DNA of 64,000 nucleotides from a virus. Both the position numbers and the translations under genes were made by a program. The notes under the pieces are model-generated. The model saw only the letters and a program-made list of their open reading frames with translations, was not told the origin of the DNA and ran no database searches. The stretch is taken from positions 1-64,000 of the IMG/VR virus record IMGVR_UViG_3300030104_004642. One strand, written 5' to 3'. This document shows positions 1 through 64,000 of the stretch, piece by piece (position 1 is the stretch's first letter; every line of letters starts with the position of its first letter).

Positions 1-303
1 AATAATAATATCTCCGTCACCACAGTGTAATAGTAACTCATTAAGTGTTTCCTCAACTGTTTCAGCAGGTATTGCCATTATAAAAATACCAGTTCCAGGG
101 TTGTCATACATACCCCAACCAGTCTTTACTTGTGAGACAAGTTCCTTAATTCCAGTGGTTACTCCATCAACAAAATCATTTTCATATGCCTCTTGGGCTT
201 TTTCATAATTTCTTCTGTAACCCCATACCACAATCTCTTGTTTCATGAGAAGACGAGACATGTTAAGTCCAACCTTCCCCAGACCAATCATTCCAACCTT
301 CAT
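1..303 (-). CDS. gnd: 6-phosphogluconate dehydrogenase, N-terminal part (runs off the window edge)
   Basis: Manual translation from ATG at 303: MKVGMIGLGKVGLNMSRLLMKQEIVVWGYRRNYEKAQEAYE...GIFIMAIPAETVEETLNELL...GDIII; Rossmann GxGxxG N-terminus of short-type Gnd. Not in the ORF track. Confidence 0.85.
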   Translation of the reverse strand, partial: MKVGMIGLGKVGLNMSRLLMKQEIVVWGYRRNYEKAQEAYENDFVDGVTTGIKELVSQVKTGWGMYDNPGTGIFIMAIPAETVEETLNELLLHCGDGDIII

Positions 304-539
304 GTAAGTTTCTCCACTATGCCTTTGATAATGTCAATGTCAATGCCCAAAAATGGTGGCACTATACCAAGTAATCTTAATAAACCATCAAGAAACAAGG
401 CAAGCACTATTGAACCTAGAATCATACTAATGATAGAGGCATTGTGATTGTGTTGTTTGATAGCAGCAGCAATCATAACCTCAACCTCATGTTTAGAGAC
501 GGTATGAGATGGTTTAATCTCATCAAATCTGTGAGTCAT
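300..539 (-). CDS. hypothetical membrane protein
   Basis: 79 aa ORF with a hydrophobic segment; ATGA overlap with gnd start. Confidence 0.7.
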   Translation of the reverse strand: MTHRFDEIKPSHTVSKHEVEVMIAAAIKQHNHNASIISMILGSIVLALFLDGLLRLLGIVPPFLGIDIDIIKGIVEKLT

Positions 540-579
540 TAGTAGAAAAAAATTGTTTCAGTTAGATTTATGTATGTGA

Positions 580-1026
580 CTACATTTTGAACTTTTCATC
601 AGATTGTGGGACAATGCTGACAGGTGCTTGTTCAATTCTAATTACCTGATGAGGTGCTGTCTGAGCAGCTTTCTCAATCAGTTTTTCCATCTGCTCCTTG
701 GTGATTCCACCACCTGGACCACCATTAGCACCATTTTTTTTAGCAGTCTGGACACCAAAAGTAGCTAAAACCCCTGTGAAAACTGAGGCTATGAAGGTTG
801 GGTCTAGTTTCTGCTCAGGAATACCTAATGCTGCTGGTAGTTTGATGTAAGCAAGGGTGAGGATACCCCCACTCCATACTAGTATTCCAAGTCTAACAAA
901 TGTTGAGAGGATTGCAAGTTGTTCCTCTTTATCATCTGTAGCTTCTTTGAGTTTTGATAGTATTCCTTTTTTCTTGGGTTCCTCTTTAGGTTCCTCTTTC
1001 TTAACATCCTTGACTTCTTCTGGCAT
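580..1026 (-). CDS. conserved cyanophage two-TM membrane protein
   Basis: Likely start MPEEVK at 1026; two hydrophobic helices; CTAAATA late-type promoter just upstream (~1047-1053). Confidence 0.7.
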   Translation of the reverse strand: MPEEVKDVKKEEPKEEPKKKGILSKLKEATDDKEEQLAILSTFVRLGILVWSGGILTLAYIKLPAALGIPEQKLDPTFIASVFTGVLATFGVQTAKKNGANGGPGGGITKEQMEKLIEKAAQTAPHQVIRIEQAPVSIVPQSDEKFKM

Positions 1027-1053
1027 CTTAAGAAAGCAGTTAATAATATTTAG

Positions 1054-1078
1054 AAAAAAAGGGACCTTTTCAGGCCCC
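1054..1078 (-). terminator. rho-independent terminator
   Basis: Minus strand GGGGCCT-GAAA-AGGTCCC followed by T7. Confidence 0.75.
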
Positions 1079-1415: not shown

Positions 1416-1419
1416 TGTT

Positions 1420-1683: not shown

Positions 1684-1691
1684 TAATTAGT

Positions 1692-1925: not shown

Positions 1926-1951
1926 TTACCTAATGTAATGATTCTTTACAT

Positions 1952-1980: not shown

Positions 1981-2194
1981 GCTGTTCACTTCTAAGACTG
2001 GCCACCTCCCTGATCAGATCATTATAATCCCTGACCAGTAGCATATGTTCATTCTCAAGATCCTCCACACGATATTGAAGTCTCTCTATCAGGTCATATA
2101 GATTCCTACAACGTTCAACATTGTCTGCTCCCCTATCTGTACTGGTGAAGAACCACTTAAAAAAGTTCTTCTTTTTCTTCTTACTCTTTTTCAT
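1967..2194 (-). CDS. hypothetical coiled-coil protein
   Basis: Start MKKSKKKKK, overlaps the pstS stop region. Confidence 0.55.
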   Translation of the reverse strand: MKKSKKKKKNFFKWFFTSTDRGADNVERCRNLYDLIERLQYRVEDLENEHMLLVRDYNDLIREVASLRSEQLDKS

Positions 2195-3149
2195 TGATGG
2201 TCTCCACTGCAGCAAGTGCTTTCAGTCTCACACTCTCAGGCAGGGCAACATAACCCATCCTTTCAGATTCATTCTGTGCCTCTTCACTCAATATAAAGTT
2301 AAGGGTTTCCTTAACACCAGGTCTTGATTCAGGGTAAGCAAGTATCCAGGTCAGTGAGACAATGGGATAGGAAATCTCACCAGCAGGATTGGGGTCAGTT
2401 CCCCTCAGTTTGTCATCAAGATTGATATTAGCAAGACCATGAGCAGTGGTTGTTGGGTTTGCTTTGAGAAACACACCCTCCTTATTCTGTAATGAGACCT
2501 GCTCCAACTTAGAGGTCATCACATAGTTATAGTTCAGATAACCAATAGAACCCTCTACTTGGAGCATCTGTGCAGCAACACCAGAGTTACCCTTTGCCCC
2601 TACACCCACAGGCCACTTAACTGTTTTTGCTGTGCCATACTTACTCTTCCATTCAGGGGAGAATGCTGACAGTGAGTTGGTAAATCCATAGGTTGTTCCA
2701 GCACCATCAGCACGATACACAACCATGATGGGCACATTACCACAACCAAACTCATTCCAGTTGTGAATCTTACCCATGAAGACATCAGCGAGTTGTGTCT
2801 GTGTCATCTTCACCTCACACCCTGGCACATTGAATGCTGGGACTATGGCACCCCCTGTGACAGGAATCTGAACCATACCACCCTCAGGTATCTTTGAGTC
2901 CTTTACAGAGGCATCTGAGGCACCAAAGTCAACTGTCTGCTTTACAAACTGTCTAACACCTGCACCACTACCAACTGCTTGATAGTTGACCTGATGACCA
3001 GTCTTGGAGGAAAACTTAGCAAACCAAGCCTGATAAAGTGGTGCTGGGAATGTTGCTCCTGCCCCTGAGATCTTAAAAACATCCTTCTTTTCTCCACAGG
3101 ATGCAAGGAGGGGTGCTACCAGGGCAGCAACGATAAATGCTTTTTTCAT
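2181..3149 (-). CDS. pstS: phosphate ABC transporter substrate-binding protein
   Basis: Lipoprotein signal (LLASC); GAGATFPAPLY, YQAVGSGAG, DFGASD, RADGAGTT, YPIVSLTW motifs. Confidence 0.96.
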   Translation of the reverse strand: MKKAFIVAALVAPLLASCGEKKDVFKISGAGATFPAPLYQAWFAKFSSKTGHQVNYQAVGSGAGVRQFVKQTVDFGASDASVKDSKIPEGGMVQIPVTGGAIVPAFNVPGCEVKMTQTQLADVFMGKIHNWNEFGCGNVPIMVVYRADGAGTTYGFTNSLSAFSPEWKSKYGTAKTVKWPVGVGAKGNSGVAAQMLQVEGSIGYLNYNYVMTSKLEQVSLQNKEGVFLKANPTTTAHGLANINLDDKLRGTDPNPAGEISYPIVSLTWILAYPESRPGVKETLNFILSEEAQNESERMGYVALPESVRLKALAAVETINEKE

Positions 3150-3173
3150 ATTAGGTCTAAATGACATCACTAT

Positions 3174-3201: not shown

Positions 3202-3202
3202 T

Positions 3203-4561: not shown

Positions 4562-5363
4562 TAATCACCTTCCACCCATGACAATACAGGTCCTTAGTAT
4601 TTAAGTGTGCATTATTTGGTCCAAACCATCTACTTGGTGCTATAACCTTCTCACCCTGTCCTAACCATGCTCCCCACCAGGAGAATGAGGAGTTAGCAAT
4701 AATATGATCACTACACTGGGTCATCAGATATAGGTCATGATATGGTCCTGCTGCCTCTGAGACAAGGAATCTATCATCACTGAATAGTTGTTGTTCCATA
4801 CACCACTTAGGATCATCACTGAAAATAATGATCTGCCTTTTGGCATCAATCTTTCCCAATGCCCTCTCATAATATTCAAGTGGTAGATTATGATGATTAC
4901 CAGAGTTGATAAGAAAATCTCCCCTGCGTATATGTAAGGCAACAGGATCCTCAAAACAGGAATCCACAATCTCCCTACACTCATTCACAATCTGTTTCTT
5001 AAATGTGAACTGCTGTCTTACCTCATCCTCACAGTGTTGAAAGTATTTGTCTGTCTGAAAGAATCCATACAGTGTAAAATTCACACTGGGATCTGTTGCA
5101 AAGGCATAACTATTAAACTGAAATCCCTTCTCAGCAAGGACATTCTGTTCCTTCAGCATCCCAATATTATCTGGTTTGATATCAAAACAATCAAACAATT
5201 CTATCCTTAGTTTGTTACCAATACCATCATCAAAGATCTCATCATGATTTGGTATCATAAAAGGCACCCCCAGTTTCCTGGCGATGCCTAATGTTGCTGC
5301 ATACTGAAACATTTGATTTCCAAGTTGTCCCAGTTTGCCAAGATAATTAAATGCTACAGTCAT
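4554..5363 (-). CDS. alpha-1,2-fucosyltransferase (GT11)
   Basis: GQLGNQMFQYA, GFFQ, LHIRRGD, FSDD, IIANSSFSWWGAWL motifs. Confidence 0.92.
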   Translation of the reverse strand: MTVAFNYLGKLGQLGNQMFQYAATLGIARKLGVPFMIPNHDEIFDDGIGNKLRIELFDCFDIKPDNIGMLKEQNVLAEKGFQFNSYAFATDPSVNFTLYGFFQTDKYFQHCEDEVRQQFTFKKQIVNECREIVDSCFEDPVALHIRRGDFLINSGNHHNLPLEYYERALGKIDAKRQIIIFSDDPKWCMEQQLFSDDRFLVSEAAGPYHDLYLMTQCSDHIIANSSFSWWGAWLGQGEKVIAPSRWFGPNNAHLNTKDLYCHGWKVING

Positions 5364-6328
5364 GAAAGAAGTAGATTACAAATTTCTTTTGTCTTGTTTA
5401 TACCCATAAGGGATTCCTCAAGCAGGATGTCCACCTTAGAATTATAATCCACAAAAACCTCATAGTCAACCTGGTTCAGCAGGCAGTCAATCCAGCAACT
5501 GGATGGGTTGGTCACATAATACTTTGACCCAATAGAATATAACTGTGATCTGTTAATTTTATTGTGAACTAACCAGGCATTATCAACCAGATGATTATCA
5601 GGACTTCTTAGAAGAATATACTCAAGTTTAGGATGTAATACTCCACCATTACAGGTTGGATGTCTTACAAAATAGCAAGGACCATGAGATAGATCAGAGA
5701 TCTTATCCCATGTCTCTTCTTTCCACTTCTCTGTATAGATTCCTGCCCACTCCCCACTGTTTGTGTCAAGCTTGATATCCTGAGAGTTTGGTTTATCAAA
5801 TCCATTAGTAAAGAAGAATACCTTACTCCCTTTGATAGGTGGTATCTTTGAGTAGAAATGATTTGGGACACCAACATGTAGAATCTTTTGTTTAGGTGTA
5901 GCAATCTTTGGATTCAGGTAATCCTCTTTGACCCAAGTGATCACATGGTCAGCACTAAAAAAATATTTTGGAAGTCTGGTGAGTGCTTCTTGTGAGATAC
6001 CATGCTGTATAGCATAGGTTTTACACTTCACCTTAGTACAAAGGTTAAAATCATAATGATGATACTGATTGCTTGTGCCAGATGTAACAAGCATGGAGTT
6101 AGCATCCTCTGAGTATTCAATAAGTCTCCTCTCCTCTTTTATGTCAAGGGTATAAAACTTTGAATACCTATCCACATACTCATTTACCTTGTATGCCAGG
6201 GCATCATTACTAAGTTCAGCAAAATTTGTGTAAAGAAGAACCTCATGTCCCCCCTCACACATATTTTTTATCATAGGAATCAAGAACCTTAGATGATTCC
6301 TAGTTGTGGTGCATAATATAACTTTCAT
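5360..6328 (-). CDS. putative GT-B fold transferase (TagF/capsule polymerase-like)
   Basis: IQHG, ADHVITW, VGVP, VRHP and SS motifs in the order typical of CDP-glycerol/capsule transferases. Confidence 0.5.
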   Translation of the reverse strand: MKVILCTTTRNHLRFLIPMIKNMCEGGHEVLLYTNFAELSNDALAYKVNEYVDRYSKFYTLDIKEERRLIEYSEDANSMLVTSGTSNQYHHYDFNLCTKVKCKTYAIQHGISQEALTRLPKYFFSADHVITWVKEDYLNPKIATPKQKILHVGVPNHFYSKIPPIKGSKVFFFTNGFDKPNSQDIKLDTNSGEWAGIYTEKWKEETWDKISDLSHGPCYFVRHPTCNGGVLHPKLEYILLRSPDNHLVDNAWLVHNKINRSQLYSIGSKYYVTNPSSCWIDCLLNQVDYEVFVDYNSKVDILLEESLMGINKTKEICNLLLS

Positions 6329-6957
6329 TACTTAAATGTAATAGCAAATATAAGATCATCATATCTATTTTTGACCTCCCTAAGGTCAACACCCTTACCC
6401 ACATACCTATCACCACCAACCTCTTTCAGTTTCTTATCAAGTGCCTCAAAGTCCTCAACCTTTTGCACATCCTCAATAAACAATGTGCCTCCTTTTTTGA
6501 GCATGGGAAGATAGTATTCAATACACAACACCTGTGATTCTAAGGTATGGGGTCCATCATCAAAGATAATATCAAAACCCTCTGGTCTTACCTTTTTAAC
6601 CTGTGCTGGTGTGTCCTCATCATAGGCATCACAGTTTGCATATGTAAATCTCTTATTGTCCATGATCTCCCAGCATTTTGGATTCATGGTCTCTTGAATA
6701 TCAAGTAGGAGGAGCCTTGATTTGGTCAGATAATCATGCCACAGGATAGCAGAACAACCATAGTTTGTGCCCAGTTCTAAAACTGAAACATCCTTATCCT
6801 TATACTTCTCAAGATTCTCAACATAGAAGTCACAATAACCATGCTCAGCATCCTTGTCAGTTCCCCAACCACCAAGATGCCTTCCCTGACTATCATACTT
6901 ACCACTGAATCCATTCATGTTATACTTTTCAATGATTTCTACTAATTGATTTTTCAT
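6328..6957 (-). CDS. class I SAM-dependent methyltransferase (sugar O-methyltransferase-like)
   Basis: GTDK..H.Y, VLELG, DIIFDDGPH, GGTLFIED motifs; start taken at MKNQ. Confidence 0.8.
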   Translation of the reverse strand: MKNQLVEIIEKYNMNGFSGKYDSQGRHLGGWGTDKDAEHGYCDFYVENLEKYKDKDVSVLELGTNYGCSAILWHDYLTKSRLLLLDIQETMNPKCWEIMDNKRFTYANCDAYDEDTPAQVKKVRPEGFDIIFDDGPHTLESQVLCIEYYLPMLKKGGTLFIEDVQKVEDFEALDKKLKEVGGDRYVGKGVDLREVKNRYDDLIFAITFK

Positions 6958-6961
6958 AATT

Positions 6962-7813
6962 CTAAGTTGGGTACTTTGTTCTTGGTAAATATGCCCTATT
7001 GGGCAAATGCTTTGGATCAATCTTAATATGTTTCTTGTTGCCATTGAGCACAAAGTAATTATAACATAAGACAGATTCTAATTGCGTCTTGATGTCTGCT
7101 CCTTTGCACCTGTTCTCATACTCCTTTGAGGATAGATTCTCATCCTGATAAACCCTGTTGAATACATCCTCCTTTCCAATCTCACACCAGGTCTTCATTG
7201 CCAATGGATCACCAAAGACAACAATATCACTCAGGATCTTATTGAATACACCATTGTCAAGGGTAACAGAGAAGTCATAATCCATACCAAATAGTGTATT
7301 GTTCTCAATAAACTTCTCATAGTAGTTTAGATCCAACTGTGATACCCAGGCATCATATCTTGATTTAATAATCAGATCATAGGTCTCTGGATTCTCAATC
7401 AGTTTGTATGATTTATAAATGTTTCTGACCTGCCCATAGTAACTCCTAAGGGTGGATTCTTCATTCTCAGCACACCCCATCTTGGCAGATTTGCTCTCCA
7501 CAAATCCAGGTGATGACCTAATTAGATGACAATACTTATTGGCAAAGTTACTAATCTCCTCATCCACCATCTCATAGTTTTCAATATTGATACTCTTATA
7601 GTCAAGGTATCTCTCAAAGAATAACCAATCAATCCTTGGTGAGTTTGTATATCCCTTCTTATCAGCAGGTTCCTTATGTGGTGCCCCTATAATATCATAT
7701 GTGTTTGAGTAGATGTCAATCCTATGACCTAAATTTAATTTTTTAAATTTCCAAATCTCCTCAAAATACTTAGTATCCCTTACAAATCCAGGAAGTAGAT
7801 ATGCTACCTTCAT
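6962..7813 (-). CDS. putative glycosyltransferase-like protein
   Basis: MKVAYLLPGFVR N-terminus, YDLIIKSRYD and SDIVVFG motifs; inside the sugar cluster. Confidence 0.45.
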   Translation of the reverse strand: MKVAYLLPGFVRDTKYFEEIWKFKKLNLGHRIDIYSNTYDIIGAPHKEPADKKGYTNSPRIDWLFFERYLDYKSINIENYEMVDEEISNFANKYCHLIRSSPGFVESKSAKMGCAENEESTLRSYYGQVRNIYKSYKLIENPETYDLIIKSRYDAWVSQLDLNYYEKFIENNTLFGMDYDFSVTLDNGVFNKILSDIVVFGDPLAMKTWCEIGKEDVFNRVYQDENLSSKEYENRCKGADIKTQLESVLCYNYFVLNGNKKHIKIDPKHLPNRAYLPRTKYPT

Positions 7814-13917: not shown

Positions 13918-14481
13918 TCACTTGTCTTCAATAAACCAATCAATACCCTCCCTACTTGCTAGTTTATCCACATCATGAGGATCCATCTCACCCTTTGGCA
14001 AATAAGCAAGTTCTCTCAAAGCATATACTGATGGATCCATAGTAACACTCGTGGGTAATCTACCTAGTGCCACATTATCAAAGTTAAGTTGATGCCTATC
14101 AAATGTAGAGAGTTCATATTCTTCTGTGTGTGATAGACAGTTTGTTGGGCAGTATTCCACACAGTTTCCACAGAATATACAAACCCCAAAATCTATAGAA
14201 TAGTTTCTTAACTCCTTCTTCTTGCTCTTCTTATTCATCACCCAATCAACCACTGGAAGGTTGATTGGACAGACACGAACACAAACCTCACAGGCAATAC
14301 ACTTATCAAACTCATAGTGTATTCTTCCCCTATATCTTTCAGAGGGTATTAGTTTCTCATAGGGATACTGGACAGTGATGGGTCTCCTTTTCATATGATC
14401 AAAGGTGACTGACATCCCCTGAGCCATATATTTGGCAGTATTAACTACCTCTTTTAAGTATCCAAAGATTGAGTTTCCCAT
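13918..14481 (-). CDS. ndhI: NDH-1 complex subunit I (2x[4Fe-4S])
   Basis: [32 protein letters not shown] and [12 protein letters not shown]; cyanobacterial type. Confidence 0.95.
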
Positions 14482-15122: not shown

Positions 15123-15124
15123 TA

Positions 15125-15197
15125 TGCTTCCTGAGAGGATTGAACTCTCCTTAGGCAAATTATGAGTTTGCTGCATTCACCAGATTGCTAAGGAAGC
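15125..15197 (-). tRNA. tRNA with CAT anticodon (Met or Ile2)
   Basis: GCTTCCT/AGGAAGC acceptor stem; GCAAA-CTCATAA-TTTGC anticodon arm; T-loop GTTCAAT. Confidence 0.85.
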
Positions 15198-15200
15198 AAG

Positions 15201-15272
15201 TAGGACTGCTGGGAATTGAACCCAGTTTGCACCGTTATAAGCAGTGAGCATTAACCAATATGCGACAGTCCC
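15201..15272 (-). tRNA. tRNA-Ile(TAT)
   Basis: GGGACTG/CAGTCCT acceptor; CACTG-CTTATAA-CGGTG anticodon arm; GGTTCAATTCC T-arm. Confidence 0.85.
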
Positions 15273-15446
15273 TCAGGATGCCTCGTTGTTCTGTTCCAGA
15301 TATAACTTCATTATATCATCATCTGCTGGCATCATCACTGCCCTTTCACCACTCTCGTTTTCCACACCTATTGTCTCTCCCTTCTCAACCCTTTCAAGGA
15401 GTTGTTCCCAATTCTTCTGCCAATGTTCCACAGAATAAAATTCCAT
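15273..15446 (-). CDS. small protein resembling the Phd/YefM antitoxin N-terminal domain
   Basis: MEFYSVEHWQKNWEQLLERVEKGETIGVENESGERAVMMPADDDIMKLYLEQNNEAS; below the track cutoff. Confidence 0.55.
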   Translation of the reverse strand: MEFYSVEHWQKNWEQLLERVEKGETIGVENESGERAVMMPADDDIMKLYLEQNNEAS

Positions 15447-15465
15447 TGCTATGAATATATATGGT

Positions 15466-16155
15466 TTAAATAAATGTTTGTAATTTGTGTAAAATTACTT
15501 TATATGCCTCCACTATATCACCCTCATCCAATCTGAACAAGTCCTTATCATACCTCTCCATATCACTCTTTCCCCACAATCTCATTGAGTCAGGTGATAT
15601 CTCATCAGCAAGTAATAGTTCACCATGAGCATCAATACCAAACTCAATCTTGAAGTCAATAACATCAAACCCAATTATGTTGAACATGTTAATGAGATAA
15701 TCATTAATCAACATTGCTTGCTCAACAATTGGAGCAGAGTCATATCCCATCAATTTAACCCTATCCCTTGTGAGTAAAGGGTCATGCTTGCTATCATCCT
15801 TTAAAAAGAATTCTACAATGGCAGGTAGGATTGGTTGACCCTCCTTAAGTGTGGTGGTCTTCACAATAGATCCTGCTGCCCTGTTTCTAACAATTACTTC
15901 CAGTGGAATGATATCCACCTTCTTACACAACATCCTGTTAGGACCAACCTGTGTGATGTAATGATTTCTAACACCAAGATCTGCTAACTTTTCAAAGATA
16001 ATGGATGAGATCTGACAACAAAGTGAACCCTTACCAGCAGGATAATCCTCCTTCTCACCATTTCCAGCAGTAACTTTATCATGATAATGAATCAATACTT
16101 CTTCAGCATTATCAGTATTGAATACTGTTTTTACCTTACCCTCAACAACAAGCAT
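15466..16155 (-). CDS. purC: SAICAR synthetase
   Basis: EGKVK, IPLEVIVRN.AAGS, EFFLKDD..HDP, DFKIEFG, LADEISPDSMRLW, DKDLFR. Confidence 0.95.
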   Translation of the reverse strand: MLVVEGKVKTVFNTDNAEEVLIHYHDKVTAGNGEKEDYPAGKGSLCCQISSIIFEKLADLGVRNHYITQVGPNRMLCKKVDIIPLEVIVRNRAAGSIVKTTTLKEGQPILPAIVEFFLKDDSKHDPLLTRDRVKLMGYDSAPIVEQAMLINDYLINMFNIIGFDVIDFKIEFGIDAHGELLLADEISPDSMRLWGKSDMERYDKDLFRLDEGDIVEAYKVILHKLQTFI

Positions 16156-16403
16156 CAGCGCACCTCAAAGTCTAGTCTTTTAACTTTTCTTTTTCTCCTC
16201 TCTTCCTGGTAGAGTAGTTCTTCCCTTGAGAAGTGACTATCAATCTTTTCTTCAACCTTATTGGTAACCATTACAACCTTATCTAGGTCAATGGCGCCAA
16301 CCTTATTGTCCGCCAATCTCATTTGATTAGCACAACCACAGAACTGAACCTTACTAGTGCTGGTCAGTTCTCTATTACATTCCTTGCATCTAACTGTAAT
16401 CAT
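16155..16403 (-). CDS. conserved Zn-ribbon-like protein
   Basis: Start taken at MITVRCKEC (16403); CxxC...CxC; the longer track ORF overlaps tRNA-Val. Confidence 0.7.
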   Translation of the reverse strand: MITVRCKECNRELTSTSKVQFCGCANQMRLADNKVGAIDLDKVVMVTNKVEEKIDSHFSREELLYQEERRKRKVKRLDFEVR

Positions 16404-16419
16404 TGTTCTGAAAAATAGA

Positions 16420-16491
16420 TGGGAGATACTGGATTTGAACCAGTGACACCCTGCGTGTAAAGCAGACATTCTACCACTGAACTAATCTCCC
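16420..16491 (-). tRNA. tRNA-Val(TAC)
   Basis: GGGAGAT/ATCTCCC acceptor; CTGC-TTTACAC-GCAG anticodon arm; GGTTCAAATCC T-arm. Confidence 0.9.
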
Positions 16492-16673
16492 TTTTCTTTA
16501 TATAAGTGGGGATATTCCTGTTTCAACCAACAGGGTTTACACATGGAACCAACCCAAAGGTATAGTTCCTCATTCCAATATCCAAGTGTAGGACACTTAT
16601 TGGCAGGGGTCATCTGACCACATGCACAACACTCTGTCTCCCACATTTTCCATACTCTATCCTTGTCCAGCAT
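16482..16673 (-). CDS. Cys-rich hypothetical protein
   Basis: 63 aa with CCAC and CKPC. Confidence 0.5.
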   Translation of the reverse strand: MLDKDRVWKMWETECCACGQMTPANKCPTLGYWNEELYLWVGSMCKPCWLKQEYPHLYKEKGD

Positions 16674-16899
16674 TCTTCTCTTCCTTCTTAGTTTTGAAGT
16701 AGAGTTTATAATATCTCTTCTTCATCTCTGCAAGCACTTCCATGTCCTCACCAAATCCCATAAATTTAAGATGTTGATAAGTGCCTTCCATCTCACTGAT
16801 TAGACAGCAAATATTTATAGCACTTTGAGGTCTACCTCCAAAGTCATAGTAAGACATTGGTGGTGGATTGCCTGTTGATGATACAAGAGATTCACTCAT
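16657..16899 (-). CDS. conserved cyanophage hypothetical protein
   Basis: 80 aa ORF downstream of the manA-like RNA. Confidence 0.6.
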   Translation of the reverse strand: MSESLVSSTGNPPPMSYYDFGGRPQSAINICCLISEMEGTYQHLKFMGFGEDMEVLAEMKKRYYKLYFKTKKEEKNAGQG

Positions 16900-16968
16900 A
16901 TGTATGTAGAATAGGTAACCAAGAGGTGTTTAGTTAAGGATTTCCCCAATCTATTCCTCTTGGTTGGT

Positions 16969-17134
16969 TTGGGTGGGTAGAGGGATTTACTTTTCACCCT
17001 CAACAAGATGGTCTCACTAGTAAGATAGTGATCTTGTTCTTTTCAGTCCTCTTGGTTAGAGTTCTGTGTCACCACAGCGGGCACCACCCCTGACTTACTT
17101 CACCATTACAGAGTGCATGACCACATCTGTTTTT
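16969..17134 (-). ncRNA. manA-like structured RNA motif
   Basis: GTCAGGGGTGGTGCCCGCT..AGAACTC..ACCAAGAGG..GAAA..CACTA..ACTAG..GAGGGTGAAAAGTAAATCCCTC.ACCCACC, multi-stem and adjacent to a tRNA; matches my recollection of the manA motif. Boundaries approximate. Confidence 0.7.
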
Positions 17135-17169
17135 CTGGCATACCCTAAGGAGAATGATCAGTTCTCCAA

Positions 17170-17241
17170 CAGGTCCACTAGGAATCGAACCTAGAATAAC
17201 TGCTTAGAAGGCAGTAGTTATATCCGTTTAACTATGGACCC
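17170..17241 (-). tRNA. tRNA-Arg(TCT)
   Basis: GGGTCCA/TGGACCT acceptor; ACTGC-CTTCTAA-GCAGT anticodon arm; GGTTCGATTCC T-arm. Confidence 0.9.
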
Positions 17242-17315
17242 AGATGATGGTTCCTATCGCCGCTAACCCTGAACCACCAAGGGGGTCACCGCAGTGGTCT
17301 CTCAACCACCCTTTA

Positions 17316-26371: not shown

Positions 26372-27637
26372 TTACTTCTTTTTCTTATGTTTATTTATGA
26401 AATTCTTTAAACCTTCACCCGTCATCCTTGCCACATAGTTTCTGTGTGAGTCTGTTCCTACCTCTCTTTCACTGGCAGGCACTCCACTTGGACCAGGATA
26501 GTTGACAACTGTCTCTTGAACATCCCTCAACCATGACTTGAACATGATATTGTCCTCAGTCACAGCAATCACATAGTTGGTTCCCCTTCTAATAATTTTA
26601 CCTATCAAACCATGATTAAGGTTCTCAATTATGGAATCCTTTCTAAAAATATTGTTTGTTACATAGTTTTCCCTAAGGTTTTTCCAATCAAACTTAGGTG
26701 CAATCTCCCACAGACTCCATCCTTCCTTGATACCTAACTTCTGACGCAGTTTATTAAAGTTGATTTTTGCTGTTTTATCATCAACAACATTAGGAATACC
26801 ACTCCTATATGTCTTAAAATCATTCTCTGCTGCTGCCTTTCTCATCTTAGAGGCAGACATTCCCTCTACCCCCTCAGCGTCTGGATCTCTGTCTCCAGCA
26901 GATACAATCTCCACACCAGAAAAATCATACAGTTGGCCATTGTAGTCTCCTGATAGTTTGGCAAATTCTTTGACCCTATCAGCACCAACCACAATTTTAA
27001 CACTTGAATGTCCATCATCATACCCCTGCTTCAAAACATCAAAAATGGTCCTTGAGTTAGGATCATTTACAATATCAGCAGCATAATCAGGCATTTGCTG
27101 CTTCATGAGTTCAATCTTTTCATCAGCATCATATGGATTCTTCTTATTATCCTGTGTTCTTGATGGATATATCTTTAATCTTCCCTTTCCTGCTGCTTTT
27201 TTAGCAGCATCCAACAGTTTTTGATGCCCAACAGTGGGTGGGTTAAACCTACCAAATACTACTGTGAGATCTCCAAGGTCTTCTTTAGGAGTGCCATCTG
27301 CTCTCGTAGGCATTGGCATTCTCCTTGGAGTTCCATCTCCAAATGCTCCAAATTCTCCTTGCTGCACAGGTTGTTGCTGTTGTTGCTGTGCATCTTGTTG
27401 TGAATTTGTTGATTTAGGTTGCTCTTTTTCTGCTGAAGAGTCATCTTGTTCCTCCCCCTTCTTAGTAACTTCCTTCTTAGGAAGCATTTCAAGTTTACCT
27501 TTCTTGGTTACAGCAACCCTATTTCCATCCTTATCAAACCAATTTCCATGACCATCTCCCTGCAGATTCTGGCGTGCTGCCTGATCTGCTGCAACTGATG
27601 CCTTAGCCTCTGTTAGGAAGTGTAAGAACGATTTCAT
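26372..27637 (-). CDS. cytidyltransferase-like protein
   Basis: FGRFNPPTVGH, VGADR, SAGDRDPDAEG, MSASKMR. Confidence 0.88.
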   Translation of the reverse strand: MKSFLHFLTEAKASVAADQAARQNLQGDGHGNWFDKDGNRVAVTKKGKLEMLPKKEVTKKGEEQDDSSAEKEQPKSTNSQQDAQQQQQQPVQQGEFGAFGDGTPRRMPMPTRADGTPKEDLGDLTVVFGRFNPPTVGHQKLLDAAKKAAGKGRLKIYPSRTQDNKKNPYDADEKIELMKQQMPDYAADIVNDPNSRTIFDVLKQGYDDGHSSVKIVVGADRVKEFAKLSGDYNGQLYDFSGVEIVSAGDRDPDAEGVEGMSASKMRKAAAENDFKTYRSGIPNVVDDKTAKINFNKLRQKLGIKEGWSLWEIAPKFDWKNLRENYVTNNIFRKDSIIENLNHGLIGKIIRRGTNYVIAVTEDNIMFKSWLRDVQETVVNYPGPSGVPASEREVGTDSHRNYVARMTGEGLKNFINKHKKKK

Positions 27638-27664: not shown

Positions 27665-28435
27665 TTAGGAACTTGCCAGACTGAATACATCTGAGTCACT
27701 TGTTGCAGCAACACCTGTCTCCTGTTGAAACTTTTTCAGGTCACCTTTTGATGGATTAGCAAACCTTTCTCTTGCCATATCATGATATTCATCTGACAGA
27801 TCAAACCCAATATAGTCATGACCAAGCAGGGTGGCAGCAAGACCAGTGGTGCCTGACCCACTGTAAGGGTCAAAGACCAGACCAGGCGCCTGCATCACTG
27901 CCTGTATGCACCTGGCAGGCAGGAATATGGGGTATGGAGCAGGGTGGGGGTTGTTCATGTCAGGGGCAAACTGCCAGACACTGTTCCAGTTGGCAGACCT
28001 TCTAGGCAATCTAGGATGCTTCTTACCCTTACACAACCAGTAGATCCTTTCATCAGTTTGGATGAATCTATATCCAGAAATCTCAGGTCCACTACCCCTG
28101 CTCCACACAATCTCCTCTCTGATATTCCACTTTGTCTTGGTCAACCACTCCCATGGTGAGATAGAATCACCATCAAGATACCTGACTTTATGATTATAGA
28201 ACAGAGAACCACCAGGTTTTGTCTTATCACAGATGATATCTAACAGTTCAATCTGCTGTTCCTGGTACTCATCCTCTGGCAGTGTGTCATCAAAGTCTTG
28301 ATATTCAATCTTACGAAACAATCCACCACCAACACCCCTCTTATTATAGGGAGGAGAAGTAACAGTGCAGTCAATGGAATTATCTTCAAGATCAAGTGCC
28401 ATGTTCAGGCAGTTACCAGTTCTGAGTTCAATCAT
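27665..28435 (-). CDS. beta-class N4-cytosine/N6-adenine DNA methyltransferase
   Basis: TSPPY catalytic motif precedes HPAPYP and DPYSGSGTT SAM-binding motif. Confidence 0.9.
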   Translation of the reverse strand: MIELRTGNCLNMALDLEDNSIDCTVTSPPYNKRGVGGGLFRKIEYQDFDDTLPEDEYQEQQIELLDIICDKTKPGGSLFYNHKVRYLDGDSISPWEWLTKTKWNIREEIVWSRGSGPEISGYRFIQTDERIYWLCKGKKHPRLPRRSANWNSVWQFAPDMNNPHPAPYPIFLPARCIQAVMQAPGLVFDPYSGSGTTGLAATLLGHDYIGFDLSDEYHDMARERFANPSKGDLKKFQQETGVAATSDSDVFSLASS

Positions 28436-28455: not shown

Positions 28456-28484
28456 ATTATAACAGATTTATTGGACTTTGACAA
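28456..28484 (-). promoter_or_regulatory. sigma70-type promoter dedicated to the methyltransferase
   Basis: TTGTCA-17 nt-TATAAT overlapping the end of the upstream gene. Confidence 0.65.
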
Positions 28485-29733
28485 ATGGACCAGCAAGGTC
28501 AGCCTGTGATATATTCATTTTTGATGATAGGAAGTATGCATGAGCAATTAGTTCTCCCAATTTCCCTTGTTGTTTGGCCTTTATGAACATATTAATATAT
28601 CTTAGATGTCTTAATTTTGCTCTAATCTTGGTGGCAAAGTTTTTTCCAGAGGGCACACCACTATCCATGGTCAACATACCCTTAATAAAATCCTCAGGTG
28701 ACATGGATTTTTTATCAATCTCTGGACCAACAATATCAATTGGAACTTGATTTGAATTCAAAACTTTTTTATAATACGCTTGCCAGTATTTAATTTGAGC
28801 AGGAGTTGCTTTCCCACTCATAGGAATATTGAGATTTAAATCCTCTCCTGTGTATTCTTTAACAAGTTTTGCCAACTCTGGTCCAGGAATTGATCCATTT
28901 CTTGCAGCAGCAGTGACAAATTTACCCTTATTGCTAACTGCTCTGTCCCTTGGTTCAGTCACATCAGCAGTTTTACTACCTGCTTTTGTTTCCCAGGTGT
29001 ATCTTTTCTTGTATGCTCCTGCCTCAAACTCCAATTCAAACCTCAAAGAGTTTCCAACAAAGTCCATATCATTTGCCCTTCTACCAGAACTTATTTGAAA
29101 TCTGGTATTCATTGCAGTAACAAAATTTCCAGATTCAACTTTCAATCCATCTGGTCCAAGGGCAATATTTGTTGGAGTAATCTTGACACCAACATTCTTT
29201 GTCTTCTGTTTGAGAGATATGGGGACAAGTATTTTATTCTCTAACAGATCAGACATCAATCTGTTCACTGTACCAATGTAAATTGCTGGATCTAAATCAT
29301 CAAAAGACTCTTTCAGAGTATCTACTTGTCTTCTAATTTCAATTTCTTTATTCTTTTTGACCATGTAGACATCAGCAGTGTCCCATGAGTCCTTCTTACC
29401 AGAAAATATTTTTTTTTGATCTTTATTAAAAGAGTCCCAAATGTAATTTAAAATATCAGTTGTTGCTGCTGCTGGAATGGATTTTGTTCTTCCATCATAA
29501 TGAGCATACTTCCATGAAGTATCCTTAGATCCAGGTCTATGTCCAAGATAATTCATCAATGCTTCTGTCCCAGCAAGAATACCCTCCCTCCATTCACTGG
29601 ACATAGAGGGATATTCTTCATCCATAGCATTTGTCATATCAGGATCAGCACCAGGAACTGCTGATGCCCCATTATTAATTGCCTGATAGTATGATGCTAT
29701 GGATGCTGCCTCAAACTTTGCAGTGTCTGCCAT
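28468..29733 (-). CDS. putative PD-(D/E)xK-like endonuclease
   Basis: N-terminal E helix, WDTADVYMV and ISLKQ motifs. Confidence 0.5.
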   Translation of the reverse strand: MADTAKFEAASIASYYQAINNGASAVPGADPDMTNAMDEEYPSMSSEWREGILAGTEALMNYLGHRPGSKDTSWKYAHYDGRTKSIPAAATTDILNYIWDSFNKDQKKIFSGKKDSWDTADVYMVKKNKEIEIRRQVDTLKESFDDLDPAIYIGTVNRLMSDLLENKILVPISLKQKTKNVGVKITPTNIALGPDGLKVESGNFVTAMNTRFQISSGRRANDMDFVGNSLRFELEFEAGAYKKRYTWETKAGSKTADVTEPRDRAVSNKGKFVTAAARNGSIPGPELAKLVKEYTGEDLNLNIPMSGKATPAQIKYWQAYYKKVLNSNQVPIDIVGPEIDKKSMSPEDFIKGMLTMDSGVPSGKNFATKIRAKLRHLRYINMFIKAKQQGKLGELIAHAYFLSSKMNISQADLAGPFVKVQ

Positions 29734-38939: not shown

Positions 38940-39318
38940 TGATATACCTCAAAAGTTCCTTGTCTTCAACATCATTTGGAATATCATTCTTATAGAAGAT
39001 CCTGTAACTATCAGAACCATACTTACCAATACCAAAGAGTTTGGTGGCATCCTCACCATCCCACTTAAGTATATCATGGGTCATACGCATGATACGATGT
39101 GCCCTGATGTTGAACATACCAAGTGGTTTGATAAAGTCAGAGAGACTATCATGCTGCCACACTTTAAGGAACTCCTCTGGTGTGGGTGTTATCTTGAATA
39201 GTTCTGTAAGGATTGGTTTTACCTGATTGCGTGATGTAAGGTTAAGACAGATGACACCAACCATGTGCTGCCATACATTATCAACCTGTTGTTGAACCAT
39301 CAGTTCTTCAACCATCAA
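38899..39318 (-). CDS. HhH-GPD DNA glycosylase, MBD4 catalytic-domain-like
   Basis: VQQ..W..MVGVICLNLTS, PLGM...RA, L.GIGKYGSDSYRIF closely parallels MBD4 (LHGIGKYGNDSYRIF), with the catalytic Asp retained. Confidence 0.8.
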   Translation of the reverse strand: MMVEELMVQQQVDNVWQHMVGVICLNLTSRNQVKPILTELFKITPTPEEFLKVWQHDSLSDFIKPLGMFNIRAHRIMRMTHDILKWDGEDATKLFGIGKYGSDSYRIFYKNDIPNDVEDKELLRYINEEIMETVEVHTG

Positions 39319-40216
39319 CCAGACCCTCCTTTTTCAATCTATTGAAATTGTAGCATCCTTCAAAGGTAAGTTGAACCTTTGGTTTCTTACCATAATTCAT
39401 AAGCAGAAGTTCTTTTCTTTCCTTCTGCTCTCTCATATATTTACCAACAGACCTGAGTGTATATGTATGTTCAAACTCTGCCATATTCCATTCCTGGAAT
39501 CTATCCTTTACTAACTGTCCTGAGTTGTAGGAGACAAGCATATTGATACTACAATCAGAGCAATCACGAGAAAAAGTGTCATGGTTGAATCCTTTATGCA
39601 TACTTCCTTTTTTTCCATATAAACTATCCTTAATGGCATAGGGTGGGTCCAGATAGATGAATGACTTCCTCTCAGAGTATTCATCCATTAATGCTTCATA
39701 GGACAGGTTTGTGATATTCCAGTTTTCAATAATCTTCTGGAAACCTGGAAGTCTATCAATACCCCTCTGAGTAAAATTGTTTTGTGATGCCATCTTAGAG
39801 AAGGAAGATGACTCAGTTAGACCAGAAAAAGAGCACTTATTTACAATATAAAATGCACATGCCTTGGCAAAATCATTAACACTATCATCATTAAGATGAC
39901 CCTTTGATGAATTGAATAACAACTTACACTTGTCAGGGTTATCATGAAACCTTTTAAGTGAACCAAGAAAATCCCTCATCTCATCACCTTTCTCCTGGAG
40001 TTGTTGCCAGAAGTTGGTTAGTGGTTTATATAAATCATTGACCCAGATGTTCAAATGAGGATACATCTTAGTCAAATGAATTGCTACTGAACCACCACCT
40101 AAAAATGGTTCCCTATATTCTTGATAATCAGTTAGATCAGGAATGTGGGGAACAATTTTAGTGAGAGCACGTGACTTACCACCAGGATAACGAAGAGGGG
40201 TTTTCAAAGATTTCAT
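39308..40216 (-). CDS. dam: alpha-class (D12) DNA adenine methyltransferase
   Basis: LRYPGGKS, EPFLGGGSV, ND, YLDPPY motifs; target specificity not verified. Confidence 0.88.
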   Translation of the reverse strand: MKSLKTPLRYPGGKSRALTKIVPHIPDLTDYQEYREPFLGGGSVAIHLTKMYPHLNIWVNDLYKPLTNFWQQLQEKGDEMRDFLGSLKRFHDNPDKCKLLFNSSKGHLNDDSVNDFAKACAFYIVNKCSFSGLTESSSFSKMASQNNFTQRGIDRLPGFQKIIENWNITNLSYEALMDEYSERKSFIYLDPPYAIKDSLYGKKGSMHKGFNHDTFSRDCSDCSINMLVSYNSGQLVKDRFQEWNMAEFEHTYTLRSVGKYMREQKERKELLLMNYGKKPKVQLTFEGCYNFNRLKKEGLVDG

Positions 40217-60859: not shown

Positions 60860-61504
60860 TCATGCCAATGTGGGAGTAGCATTTCCATCATCTCTTCCCT
60901 GCTCATTCTTACCAATTCTGAAGTCCTGTACCTGGAAGGTTACAGTGAATTCTTCAATGGTATCAGTGGAATCATAACTCAGGTCAATGGCAGAAACTTC
61001 TGTTGGGAAGATGCCACTGAATTTATATGATCTCAGGATAATCTGCTCTTTGTTATCAGCAGGGTGCTTATCACCATTTCTGTTCTTACCTCTACCCAGT
61101 TGACTTACATAAGCACTAGTCATGTAAGAACTGGGATTAGCAAGACCAGTGCCATGTGAAAGGTCACTGATGGTGTTCATCCAACCTTCAAAAGCAGATC
61201 TCAGGTTGAAATCCTCATCATTGATGATTGTAATGGTCCAAGGTTCAAATGTTCTGTCACCAGCAACTTTCAGGATTCTACCCCTGAAAGGAACTGGAAT
61301 TTCAGCAACAGTTGAAGCAGGAAGCTGAGCAGCCTTGCAAAGGAATCTCAGATCATTCCGTGTTTCTTTTGACCACAAAGTTCCTTTATCTGAGATACCT
61401 GCAGGAAATGATGGAATAGAAACCTCAAATAGGTTGGGGCGGGCGCCCCCACCTTTTAGTCTATTCTTAAAACCTTCAATGTTCTTTGTGTTAATCTTTG
61501 ACAT
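60860..61504 (-). CDS. gp19: tail tube protein
   Basis: GGARPNLFEV, CKAAQLPAS, FRGR.LKVAGDRTF.PW, IEEFTVTF. Confidence 0.95.
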   Translation of the reverse strand: MSKINTKNIEGFKNRLKGGGARPNLFEVSIPSFPAGISDKGTLWSKETRNDLRFLCKAAQLPASTVAEIPVPFRGRILKVAGDRTFEPWTITIINDEDFNLRSAFEGWMNTISDLSHGTGLANPSSYMTSAYVSQLGRGKNRNGDKHPADNKEQIILRSYKFSGIFPTEVSAIDLSYDSTDTIEEFTVTFQVQDFRIGKNEQGRDDGNATPTLA

Positions 61505-61541
61505 GTTTGTTTACCTCTTGGTGTTATTGCTAGAATTATGA

Positions 61542-63752
61542 TCAGGAACCAGTAACTTCAGAGAAGCTAATGCCACCTCTTGTAGCAACAAAGGTAAGAG
61601 TTACAAAGTTGATTGATCTTGCAGGTTGAATGAAGATGTCAGCTCTAAACTCATTATTATCAACAATATCAGGTGTGTTGTTAGTATCATCACAAATAAC
61701 TCTAAAGTCTTCAATACCTCTCTGTGCCTGAATATCAGTCAGGAAAGGTTCAACAATATTGATAAAGTTTGCTCTGGTTGCAGCATCATTGAGTTCAAAC
61801 AGTTGATCATTAGCAGCATCTTCAAGCGCTTGTTCAACAACAAGGAACAGTCTTCTGACATTGATTCTGTCAAAAGCAGACTTGTAACTGAGAGCAGTTT
61901 TATCACCAAACAGAATTGTGCCAGCAGCATTTTGATTTACAACTGGGTTAATTCTATTGCTATAAAGTTGATCTCTCTGTGCTTTGTTGGGGTTGTATGC
62001 CAACTTGACAACATTATTCAGTGTTCCTCTTGCCTGACCAGCAGGTGAGAACCAGGGCAGGAATACAGAATTGTTTCTTGCCATGATACCAGCAATGTCA
62101 CCATTCAGAGGAATAAATCTGAACTCATTGTTGAATCTGTCAAAGACATACTTATAACCACTATCAAATACAGCAAAGGATGATCCTGTAAGTTGTCCAT
62201 AATACTTCAGGACATTATTAGTAGCAGTAGTGGAGTTAGTTACATTAACCACATTTGCTCTATGGGGGGAGATAACTGCCTGACAATCCTTTCTTTGATC
62301 AGCAATAGAAATCAGAAGATTTGCTTTTGCTTGAGTAGAAAGTTCATCATTCATTGAACCACCCATAAGCAGGAAGTCCAGTGCTACCTCATCCTTATTA
62401 TCAAACAGGTTATATCCATTAAGGATGTCACCAAGGGCAGCTGCCATTCCACCAGTAGCAGAATAATCTTGACCACCAGTCAGTGAGTATGAGATATTAC
62501 CAATAAGGTTAAACTTGACATTCTGTGCATTTACACCCCATGCACCATCACCTGCTGTGACAGGAGCAAATCCAGAGGAGAAACCACCAGCAACAGCGTT
62601 TCTTCCATTAGGAACATCTGTGTTGTTACCAGCAGCAGCACCAGCAAAGATATACTGTGAGTTATTTGCCAAGAAGTTCTTATAGTAGTTCTTGACAGGT
62701 GCATTTCCATCCTCTTCAGAATCCTTTGCCTTAGAAAGGAAGAAGTTAGTTTCAAGGATGTTTCCATTGACTCCTGTTACAGCACCCTCATCATCAACAA
62801 CCACTACGTGATAGGCATCACCAGTAGCGTTTCTGGTTGAAGCATAGTTGTTGTCAACAGGCTTGGGAGCAAGAGTCTTCCAGAAGATTGTGCTGTTATC
62901 CAGTGCCAGTTTCTGTTGATCATACCAGTCAACAGATGATACTGTTGTGATTTGAGCACCAACACCAGTGCTACCACCAGTGTTAATACCAGCACTATTA
63001 ACTAAGAAGATACCCTTTGAAGCACCAATGGATTTGAGATCACTTGAACTCTCATAGGTGCAAGCATATTCAGTTCCTGCATCTGTTGTAGCAGCAGAAA
63101 CCTGAGAAATGATCCTAACATCAATTGTGCTCAGTGCATTGGAAGAGGAATCAGTTGAGACACCAGTGATTATTGCTTTCAGATGACCAGCAAATGCTGT
63201 TGTTGTACCAGCACCAGGGACTGCTCCACTGATTGCCATGGTAACACCATGACCAACAACTGCACCAAAGGCAGAAAGGTCAGTGGTGGTAATACCAATA
63301 GTTTGGTCTGCCTGGTTATCAATAGTACAGACTTTTAGTTTATTATTGATTTCTCCTGCCTCTCTTGAAGCAAAGAACCAATCAGAGGCACTGGAATGAT
63401 TTGCCTCATAATCATCATAATTTTTAATTTTAACATCTGTTGCTGCAATTGCTACACCAGCATTTGCATTCTTCAGGTTTGTACCATCAATTCTAACCAC
63501 CTGGAGTGATCCACCATAGGTGAGGAATTCAGATGCAACCATCCAATCCTCATATTGATTATCGTTGTCCTGAGGTCTACCAAAGATCTCAAGCAATTGA
63601 CTCTGATTTGTAATCAGAACAGATTCTTCAATTGGTCCACTTTTAAATGGTGCAGCAATAGCACCAATATTATCAAGAACATTATCAGGTCTACCAACTG
63701 TAAGGTCTACTTCCCTGACCAATACACCTGGAGATAATTGAGGAGTTGCCAT
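61542..63752 (-). CDS. gp18: tail sheath protein
   Basis: LSPGVLVREVDLT, PWFSPAG..RG, FDRINVRRLF, P.RSINF..L.FVATR. Confidence 0.97.
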   Translation of the reverse strand: MATPQLSPGVLVREVDLTVGRPDNVLDNIGAIAAPFKSGPIEESVLITNQSQLLEIFGRPQDNDNQYEDWMVASEFLTYGGSLQVVRIDGTNLKNANAGVAIAATDVKIKNYDDYEANHSSASDWFFASREAGEINNKLKVCTIDNQADQTIGITTTDLSAFGAVVGHGVTMAISGAVPGAGTTTAFAGHLKAIITGVSTDSSSNALSTIDVRIISQVSAATTDAGTEYACTYESSSDLKSIGASKGIFLVNSAGINTGGSTGVGAQITTVSSVDWYDQQKLALDNSTIFWKTLAPKPVDNNYASTRNATGDAYHVVVVDDEGAVTGVNGNILETNFFLSKAKDSEEDGNAPVKNYYKNFLANNSQYIFAGAAAGNNTDVPNGRNAVAGGFSSGFAPVTAGDGAWGVNAQNVKFNLIGNISYSLTGGQDYSATGGMAAALGDILNGYNLFDNKDEVALDFLLMGGSMNDELSTQAKANLLISIADQRKDCQAVISPHRANVVNVTNSTTATNNVLKYYGQLTGSSFAVFDSGYKYVFDRFNNEFRFIPLNGDIAGIMARNNSVFLPWFSPAGQARGTLNNVVKLAYNPNKAQRDQLYSNRINPVVNQNAAGTILFGDKTALSYKSAFDRINVRRLFLVVEQALEDAANDQLFELNDAATRANFINIVEPFLTDIQAQRGIEDFRVICDDTNNTPDIVDNNEFRADIFIQPARSINFVTLTFVATRGGISFSEVTGS

Positions 63753-63834
63753 TAAATTACTCTCCTTAAGTTCTCATTATTGACTGAAATTATTTAGATT
63801 TTTCGAGTGTTTCAGTGGGGAAATAGGAAGTGAA

Positions 63835-64000
63835 CTACCAATCTGGATACTGCCAATCAACAAATGGTGTCTTTTTCTTTCTTGACTCTATGATTCTATT
63901 AATAGTACATCCCTTACATTCATAAGAATAGGAGGACGCCACAGGTCCTCTATCTTTTCTTGTCCTGTAAAAACTATCTACTAAATTCATCTCCTTCTCA
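63835..64000 (-). CDS. C-terminal part of a small Zn-ribbon-like protein (partial)
   Basis: ...NLVDSFYRTRKDRG..SSYSYECKGC...WQYPDW stop; runs off the window edge. Confidence 0.6.
   Translation of the reverse strand, partial: EKEMNLVDSFYRTRKDRGPVASSYSYECKGCTINRIIESRKKKTPFVDWQYPDW

Follow-up and report, generated by a model that had tools for sequence, protein, structure and literature searches.

Extensive loss of CG dinucleotides in a T4-like cyanomyovirus points to selection and accompanies a predicted N4-cytosine methylase cassette

An observed/expected ratio (o/e) of about 0.1 for the dinucleotide CG counts as the textbook signature of vertebrate genomes and is usually put down to the decay of 5-methylcytosine (5mC). 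The avoidance of restriction sites in virulent double-stranded DNA phages has reportedly been surveyed by Rusinov et al. in 2018, and chloroviruses encode restriction-modification systems of their own, for example R.CviJI/M.CviJI and CviAII. In Mollicutes, the under-representation of CpG has been linked to the CpG-specific methyltransferases M.MpeI of Mycoplasma penetrans and M.SssI of Spiroplasma (Wojciechowski et al. 2013, as relayed in PMC11282364). The rotifer enzyme N4CMT methylates CpG on both strands, prefers the context (a/c)CG(t/c/a) and disfavours ACGG (PMC10406627); it clusters with phage methyltransferases that lack a known specificity, and its nearest bacterial relatives are TCGA and CCSGG enzymes (PMC8885841). 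Here we study a virus from whose genome about 85-90% of the CG dinucleotides have disappeared, and a predicted N4-cytosine methylase that it carries. The DNA is the first 64,000 bases, called the window below, of a contig of 115,002 bases, IMG/VR record IMGVR_UViG_3300030104_004642, that is rated 60% complete.

Pfam profiles identify in the window T4-type gp23, gp20, gp18, gp43, UvsW and gp46/47, together with the class I ribonucleotide reductase NrdA/B. These genes belong to a module of replication, recombination and head/tail functions that lies almost entirely on the minus strand. The UvsW protein has 84% identity to its counterparts in Synechococcus phages S-B43 and S-B05, and 82% to that of Prochlorococcus phage P-TIM68. 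The contig is a P-TIM68-like, T4-like cyanomyovirus, with S-B43 and P-TIM68 as its nearest cultured relatives.

With a G+C content of 0.400, the base composition of the window predicts 2,515 CG dinucleotides, and 387 are found. The symmetrised o/e ratios over positions 1..64000, taken without regard to strand, are 0.151 for CpG, 1.33 for TpG/CpA and 0.78 for GpC. The whole contig has a CpG ratio of 0.122, ranging from 0.02 to 0.25 per 5 kilobases (kb), and a TpG/CpA ratio of 1.37; the part beyond the window is poorer still in CpG, at 0.08. An initial annotation, made from the letters alone, had announced an extreme CpG depletion across the window, and both this statement and the details given with it hold. 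The interval 5,290-7,080 indeed contains no CG, against 46 GC, and the interval 4,561-5,340 contains two, at positions 4927 and 5282. The first of these intervals lies in the longest CG-free stretch of the window, 1,803 base pairs (bp) at 5283..7084 on either strand, flanked by the CGs at 5282 and 7085; the region 3,761-13,627 is the most CG-poor part of the window, with a ratio of 0.05. Arginine was said to be encoded mostly by AGA/AGG even in gp23 (55,016-56,467, minus strand): there we count 20 AGA and 3 CGT, and 11 CG versus 88 GC in the gene. Finally, the ARAGORN predictions and their sequences confirm that three of the four transfer RNA (tRNA) genes, Met, Ile and Val, have the T-loop TTCAA, the tRNA-Arg having TTCGA; the four genes contain 0 (Met), 2 (Ile), 1 (Val) and 2 (Arg) CGs.

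Codon or amino-acid usage could be the cause of such a deficit, and the annotation asked for a count at codon positions 3-1. In the contig, the CpG ratio is 0.24 at codon positions 1-2, 0.08 at positions 2-3, 0.11 at positions 3-1 and 0.15 in intergenic DNA. At four-fold degenerate third positions, C makes up 1.1% of the bases before G versus 22-24% before A or T. Positions 3-1 and spacers are as strongly depleted as the rest, which rules out codon and amino-acid composition as the explanation: since all codon positions and the spacers are affected, the feature lies in the DNA, not in the choice of codons.

A comparison with related cyanomyoviruses, also called for at the outset, shows that most of them have a far higher ratio and that P-TIM68 is equally low. 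Over whole genomes, the CpG ratio is 0.108 for P-TIM68, 0.591 for S-SM2, 0.403 for P-SSM2 and 0.502 for S-B43; it is 0.54 for S-SCSM1 and 0.72 for S-CAM9, and cyanomyoviruses outside the depleted group lie between 0.40 and 0.75. The distribution over 80 IMG/VR loci anchored on the portal gene is bimodal: eight loci are at or below 0.19 and five lie at 0.29-0.35, all others falling within 0.40-0.75. The depleted phages are dispersed over the portal tree, which requires five changes of state in its best version, with at least three forced by well-supported branches. Our search of the literature on cyanophages, Prochlorococcus, P-TIM68 and CpG under-representation in phages found no published account of this depletion.

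Mimicry of a CG-poor host could be invoked here. Phage P-HM1 was isolated on MED4, which we take to belong to the same high-light clade as MIT9515, the host of P-TIM68, and its CpG ratio is 0.43 over 25 kb. Since P-HM1 is not depleted on a host presumably of the same clade, host mimicry is unlikely.

The bases that flank a CG matter. The words CCGG, TCGA and CCGA/TCGG, which together form the pattern YCGR (Y a pyrimidine, R a purine), occur at only 16 sites in the 115 kb, with ratios of 0.01-0.02, while the other NCGN words have ratios of 0.10-0.21. Around the surviving CGs only positions -1 and +1 count, with a purine favoured before and a pyrimidine after, and no longer motif was found; ACGT is among the best-kept words. 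The genome of P-TIM68 follows the same context pattern. YCGR is depleted in genes, by synonymous rewriting, and in spacers, far beyond what composition predicts. Certain palindromes are also missing from other phages: CCGG is absent or nearly so in P-SSM2, P-HM1, S-B43, S-RIM12 and S-CAM22; P-SSM2 and P-HM1 have no GCGC either, and P-HM1 also avoids in part TCGA (0.15) and CCGA (0.25). The loss of CCGG and GCGC in those phages is palindrome avoidance of the classic kind, separate from the general purge of CG.

A genome can run out of CGs in two ways: existing CGs may decay faster, or new ones may fail to establish themselves. In order to separate the two, changes at synonymous third positions were counted by parsimony, with nine gene trees built from 55 depleted loci. 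The change T>C before G, which creates a CG, was observed 262 times where 1,302 were expected, a ratio of 0.20. The other CpG-creating changes have ratios of 0.19 (A>C), 0.20 (G>C), 0.26 (A>G after C), 0.13 (T>G) and 0.08 (C>G), while control changes in the same contexts have ratios of 0.77-1.07. Destruction is another matter: C>T at CpG was seen 76 times for 71.1 expected, or 1.07 times the non-CpG rate, and G>A 24 times for 18.2 expected, or 1.32 times. The suppression of gain is present in every branch-length class, and the ratios for loss stay between 0 and 1.4 across all five branch-length bins; the branches shorter than 0.01 show no change at any of 342 CpG sites. Relative to control, gain is 0.42 for RCGY, 0.25 for RCGR, 0.15 for YCGY and 0.10 for YCGR, a ranking that agrees with the composition of the contig. 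Non-depleted cyanomyoviruses display a milder form of the same pattern, with gain suppressed and loss neutral.

New CGs are thus suppressed 4-12 fold, transitions and transversions alike, which points to purifying selection against newly arising CGs and not to a faster decay of existing ones. The combination of suppressed gain and neutral loss fits strong selection at most potential sites together with tolerance at a minority of them.

These counts bear directly on the mechanism that the initial annotation put first, and which they contradict: CGs would be methylated at C5, by an enzyme of the phage or of its host, and the resulting 5mC would deaminate over time to TG or CA. The excess of TpG/CpA that was proposed as a check does exist (1.33-1.37), and before G at four-fold sites T makes up 0.67 of the bases other than C, versus 0.61-0.62 in non-depleted relatives. 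However, the excess is non-specific, since a selective purge that proceeds through transitions gives it too. Deamination would require CpG transitions 5 to 20 times as frequent as in controls, where CpG sites are hardly more mutable than others and not one was lost on the shortest branches; it would require a rate of CpG gain near normal on short branches, which is not seen; and it offers no reason for CpG-creating transversions to be suppressed as strongly as transitions. The annotation had rightly remarked that no C5 methyltransferase is visible in the window: the family PF00145 is absent from the whole contig, at its 60% completeness, and from the complete genome of P-TIM68. The search did find one in S-B43, and yet the CpG ratio of that phage is only 0.50. 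The one methylase of CG type that is present belongs to the N4 class, as described below, and deaminated N4-methylcytosine (4mC) gives uracil, which is repaired. We reject decay driven by 5mC deamination, as a highly improbable explanation.

The N4 enzyme is predicted from a gene at 27665..28435, on the minus strand, whose product of 256 amino acids appears to be a stand-alone beta-class N4-cytosine DNA methyltransferase with an SPPY motif; the initial annotation had passed over this gene. It matches PF01555 with 107.9 bits (cut-off 26.7) over profile positions 1-220 of 221, and its residues 15-228 match the structures of rotifer N4CMT (PDB 8S9M/8S9N) with an E-value of 5.4e-44 and about 45% identity across the entire catalytic domain, N4CMT being its best relative of solved structure. 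Two motifs, TSPPYN towards the N-terminus and DPYSGSGTT towards the C-terminus, do not vary among nine orthologs. SPPY, which here precedes the SAM-binding GxG motif, is the catalytic motif of N4C-type enzymes, as opposed to the DPPY of N6A enzymes (PMC8885841). The gene itself contains only two CGs (o/e 0.05), and its ortholog in P-TIM68 is 80% identical and stands in the same gene order. Close homologs, with at least 57% identity, are found only on virus-sized contigs, and the family is frequent in marine metagenomes, where its clusters run to hundreds of members. Two considerations, the resemblance to a CpG-methylating enzyme and the fact that CG is the avoided word of the genome, lead us to infer that the methylase makes 4mC at CG.

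Two other groups of methylases were considered. More distant N4 homologs, 36-41% identical, are found in S-RIM12, S-CAM22 and an uncultured phage of 735 kb; these genomes are not CpG-depleted and lack CCGG, so that the enzymes probably have other specificities. The window also encodes, at 39308..40216 on the minus strand, a Dam-like, D12-class N6-adenine methyltransferase (PF02086, E 2.3e-31). Its orthologs are found both in depleted P-TIM68 and in non-depleted P-SSM2 and S-SCSM1, and it is thus not relevant to the loss of CG.

The predicted N4 methylase, on the other hand, is associated with the depletion. In a sample of contigs anchored on the neighbouring gene gp41, where the methylase was scored as missing only if the contig covers its slot, 27 distinct contigs with an ortholog have CpG ratios of 0.09-0.33 and 18 contigs without one have ratios of 0.44-0.64, with no overlap. 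A further 46 loci with the methylase all lie at 0.115-0.29. In all, each of the roughly 75 contigs that combine an ortholog with a variable upstream gene is depleted (0.09-0.33). The ortholog is absent from S-B43, S-SM2, P-SSM2, S-SCSM1 and S-CAM9, as it is from P-HM1, and S-SM2 has the slot without the methylase. Three separate depleted lineages of the portal tree are confirmed carriers; the long portal-anchored contigs end short of the methylase locus and are thus uninformative on the association.

Such an association may arise without any causal link, if the cassette and the low CG content were inherited together in a few lineages and the depletion had another cause: mimicry of a CG-poor host, a bias of replication or repair, or DNA structure. 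On the gp41 tree, the well-supported branches force a single change of state, and the best tree has four, so that the number of independent events is small; non-depleted cyanomyoviruses are already low, at 0.4-0.7, with their milder version of the same pattern of gain and loss. Both facts speak for co-inheritance. However, the 73 contigs with the methylase and the 18 without do not overlap, the depleted phages are scattered on the portal tree with at least three supported changes and three lineages known to be carriers, and P-HM1 escapes depletion on a host that we take to be of the same clade. Moreover, a mutational bias would not single out the six CpG-creating changes and suppress every one of them. 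We consider the absence of a causal link quite improbable.

In the depleted phages the methylase belongs to a conserved series of genes: gp41, mazG, a gene of 295 amino acids, a gene that we call up421, the methylase, and a cytidylyltransferase-like gene. The latter (26372..27637, minus strand; PF01467, phrog_395) marks the downstream edge of the slot and stands in the same order in P-TIM68 and in all loci with the methylase. The gene up421 (28468..29733, minus strand; phrog_1462), directly upstream of the methylase, is a candidate partner. It is the immediate neighbour of the methylase in about 70 of some 80 loci, and evolves fast: its copies are 29-86% identical, while the methylases are 80-97% identical. 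In eight loci it is replaced by alt335, an unrelated protein of 335 amino acids (for example L106:5255-6259), so that in about 78 of 80 loci one of the two genes immediately precedes the methylase. The idea that the type of upstream gene sets which CG contexts are purged was rejected: the YCGR pattern is identical across seven subgroups of up421 and alt335. The genes found in this contig and P-TIM68 but not in the other relatives are up421, the gene ndhI described below and one partial match; they include no further DNA enzyme. In S-SM2, the gene in the same position shares only the motif ISLKK with up421.

What up421 does can be approached only through faint resemblances. Its AlphaFold2 model has a predicted local distance difference test (pLDDT) score of 90, and residues 64-283 modelled alone score 75. 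Foldseek against the PDB and VIA-align, the latter also with the 64-283 domain, return no structural neighbour at Z of at least 5; the weak rows, at Z 3.4-3.7, include MspI and HinP1I (both Z 3.4 in VIA-align) and a Cas4-family nuclease, which are leads only. Searches of Pfam and of PDB sequences and profiles give no significant match, and PHROGs gives only phrog_1462, a family with no assigned function; alt335 likewise matches nothing in Pfam or the PDB and is unrelated to up421. The nearest named Atlas clusters of up421 are the restriction endonucleases HpaII (0.87) and HaeIII (0.85), below the trustworthy level, and for the two proteins together they are HpaII, HaeIII or MspI endonucleases at 0.85-0.87, which we take as a lead only. 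Both families also contain invariant D...(S/T)xK residues, again a lead only, that presumably resemble those of Cfr10I/NgoMIV-type enzymes. Among 1.8 billion proteins, a profile search retrieved 427 relatives of up421, some of them fused to DUF6267, which is uninformative.

Two contigs carry the methylase without an upstream partner, and neither is strongly depleted. The first, G024, is 99 kb long, with a CpG ratio of 0.40 and no purge of YCGR; its methylase is 84% identical to the enzymes of the depleted phages, in a gene whose own CpG ratio is 0.41. The second, L134, has a ratio of 0.73 and an intact methylase, 66% identical, with an insert of 16 amino acids after SPPYNK. These two lineages suggest that the upstream partner matters for depletion. 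The locus of L134, a non-depleted IMG/VR cyanomyovirus, has a further peculiarity: at 8436-12353 the gp43 DNA polymerase gene is split and the methylase lies between its halves, as if it were a mobile insertion.

We prefer, with moderate confidence, a reading in which the phage escapes a DNA-cutting enzyme directed at unmethylated CG words, YCGR above all: it would mark its remaining CGs with 4mC, which would protect them, and would have shed those that are least well protected. The methylase would thus act on CG, its 4mC would be protective, and the nuclease would be the selective agent. The initial annotation had offered evasion of a CG-recognising nuclease as its second possibility; the signature of selection and the near-total loss of YCGR fit that part of it, but no such nuclease was identified.

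The enzyme may come from the phage itself, the upstream gene of the cassette being a restriction-like weapon against host or rival DNA, or, with only slightly lower probability, from the hosts; both are tentative possibilities. A complete scenario can be built on the former, in which methylase and upstream gene form a phage-borne, restriction-modification-like weapon, up421 and alt335 cut unmethylated CG or YCGR, and the phage survives by marking CGs with 4mC and deleting others. As a whole this scenario is doubtful. If it is true, the two proteins would represent new restriction-enzyme folds with a CG specificity of 2-4 bp, and the phage would be the first virus to rewrite its whole genome around a dinucleotide in order to live with its own nuclease.

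Several facts weigh against evasion of a nuclease. A phage that methylates its CGs should have no need to shed them, so that the reading requires incomplete protection. No nuclease was recognised in the contig, and, as seen above, up421 resembles none significantly in sequence or fold. A relative of up421, 23% identical, occupies the same position in three near-identical contigs, L205-207, that are not depleted and have no methylase, which also speaks against a specific partnership between up421 and the methylase. The specificity of the methylase is put forward from its 45% identity to N4CMT, whose published flank preferences do not predict a special loss of TCGA and CCGA. The methylase has been kept for a long time by G024, and yet that genome is at 0.40. 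The few changes forced on the gp41 tree are to be added to this list.

The same facts may be read in the opposite direction, with the methylated CG as a liability: each 4mCpG site would be costly, because of a host Type IV methylation-dependent nuclease or of slower replication, transcription or packaging, and selection would trim CGs while the methylase is kept for another benefit. The confinement of depletion to carriers of the methylase agrees with this, and so does a signature, gain suppressed and loss neutral, of weak selection per site; the nuclease McrBC, for one, cleaves 4mC DNA too (PMC8885841). However, G024 kept its methylase until the gene had reached a ratio of 0.41, with the genome still at 0.40, and L134 has an intact homolog at 0.73. 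McrBC prefers the context R-mC, and the CGs that were kept are RCGY, the opposite of what is expected; ACGT, the favoured core of N4CMT, is likewise among the best-kept words. We find this alternative improbable.

Other genes of the window deserve a brief description; all are on the minus strand. At 13918-14481 lies ndhI, an auxiliary metabolic gene for NdhI, the ferredoxin-like subunit I of the NDH-1 complex of cyanobacteria (PDB 6HUM chain I, E 1e-93); P-TIM68 has a version that is 77% identical, and S-SM2, P-SSM2 and S-B43 lack it. The four tRNA genes Met, Ile, Val and Arg-TCT lie within 15124..17242 (ARAGORN), as does PurC, a host-like SAICAR synthetase (15466-16155, E 2e-66). PstS, a phosphate-binding protein (2181-3167), is host-like too, and its closest relatives in a large protein set sit on phage-sized contigs. 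A run of about 12 genes of 190-320 amino acids, at 3761-13627, is without counterpart in the regions fetched from the relatives; its first gene is glycosyltransferase-like and its last a NAD-dependent epimerase/dehydratase. Between the Dam-like methylase and gp62, an open reading frame of 139 amino acids with a TTG start (38899-39318) has a weak match to HhH-GPD, a base-excision glycosylase domain, under the cut-off at E 1e-4; no PHROG matches it, and P-TIM68 lacks a counterpart. Outside the window, the region 82591-103761 of the contig, where the CpG ratio is only 0.02-0.06, contains two giant minus-strand open reading frames of 2,529 and 3,994 amino acids.

A loss of CG on the scale of vertebrates is thus found in abundant ocean phages. 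Since it occurs here with an N4 methylase and a pattern of selection, the depletion of a dinucleotide does not count as evidence of 5mC and can instead be a trait under selection that goes with a single gene cassette. Because the methylase family is common in marine metagenomes, the trait concerns a sizeable share of cyanophage diversity. Two predictions follow from the preferred reading. There should be a natural CpG-specific 4mC methyltransferase, which would be a useful tool enzyme and can be sought in the cultured P-TIM68 on Prochlorococcus MIT9515; and marine cyanobacteria or their phages should possess a new nuclease that reads unmethylated CG or YCGR.

As in the Mollicutes, in the account relayed above, CG is lost genome-wide alongside a methyltransferase encoded in the same genome, the enzymes of Mollicutes acting on bare CG. 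Those enzymes, however, are C5 methyltransferases and the loss is attributed to deamination of 5mC, while the phage has an SPPY enzyme of the N4 class, no hypermutability of CpG and the mark of selection; and the genome concerned is that of a lytic phage instead of a cell. With N4CMT of the rotifer Adineta vaga (PDB 8S9M/8S9N/8S9O) the predicted phage methylase shares the SPPY and GSGTT motifs and their order, but N4CMT has a chromodomain and works in chromatin, and the rotifer genome shows no CpG deficit (PMC8885841). The words best kept by the phage, RCGY, match only in part the preferred context of N4CMT. Chloroviruses are also lytic viruses of a phototroph with methyltransferases of their own, some of them with frequent-cutting nucleases used on host DNA; they protect their own DNA by methylation, while in the present cassette no nuclease was recognised, and to our knowledge they do not purge the target word from their genomes. 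We know of no restriction enzyme for YCGR. With restriction-site avoidance the phage has in common the near-total loss of short palindromic words, here YCGR, by silent rewriting; but unlike the usual avoidance of sites of 4-6 bp, it avoids CG whatever the flanking bases and, on top of that, avoids YCGR more strongly still.

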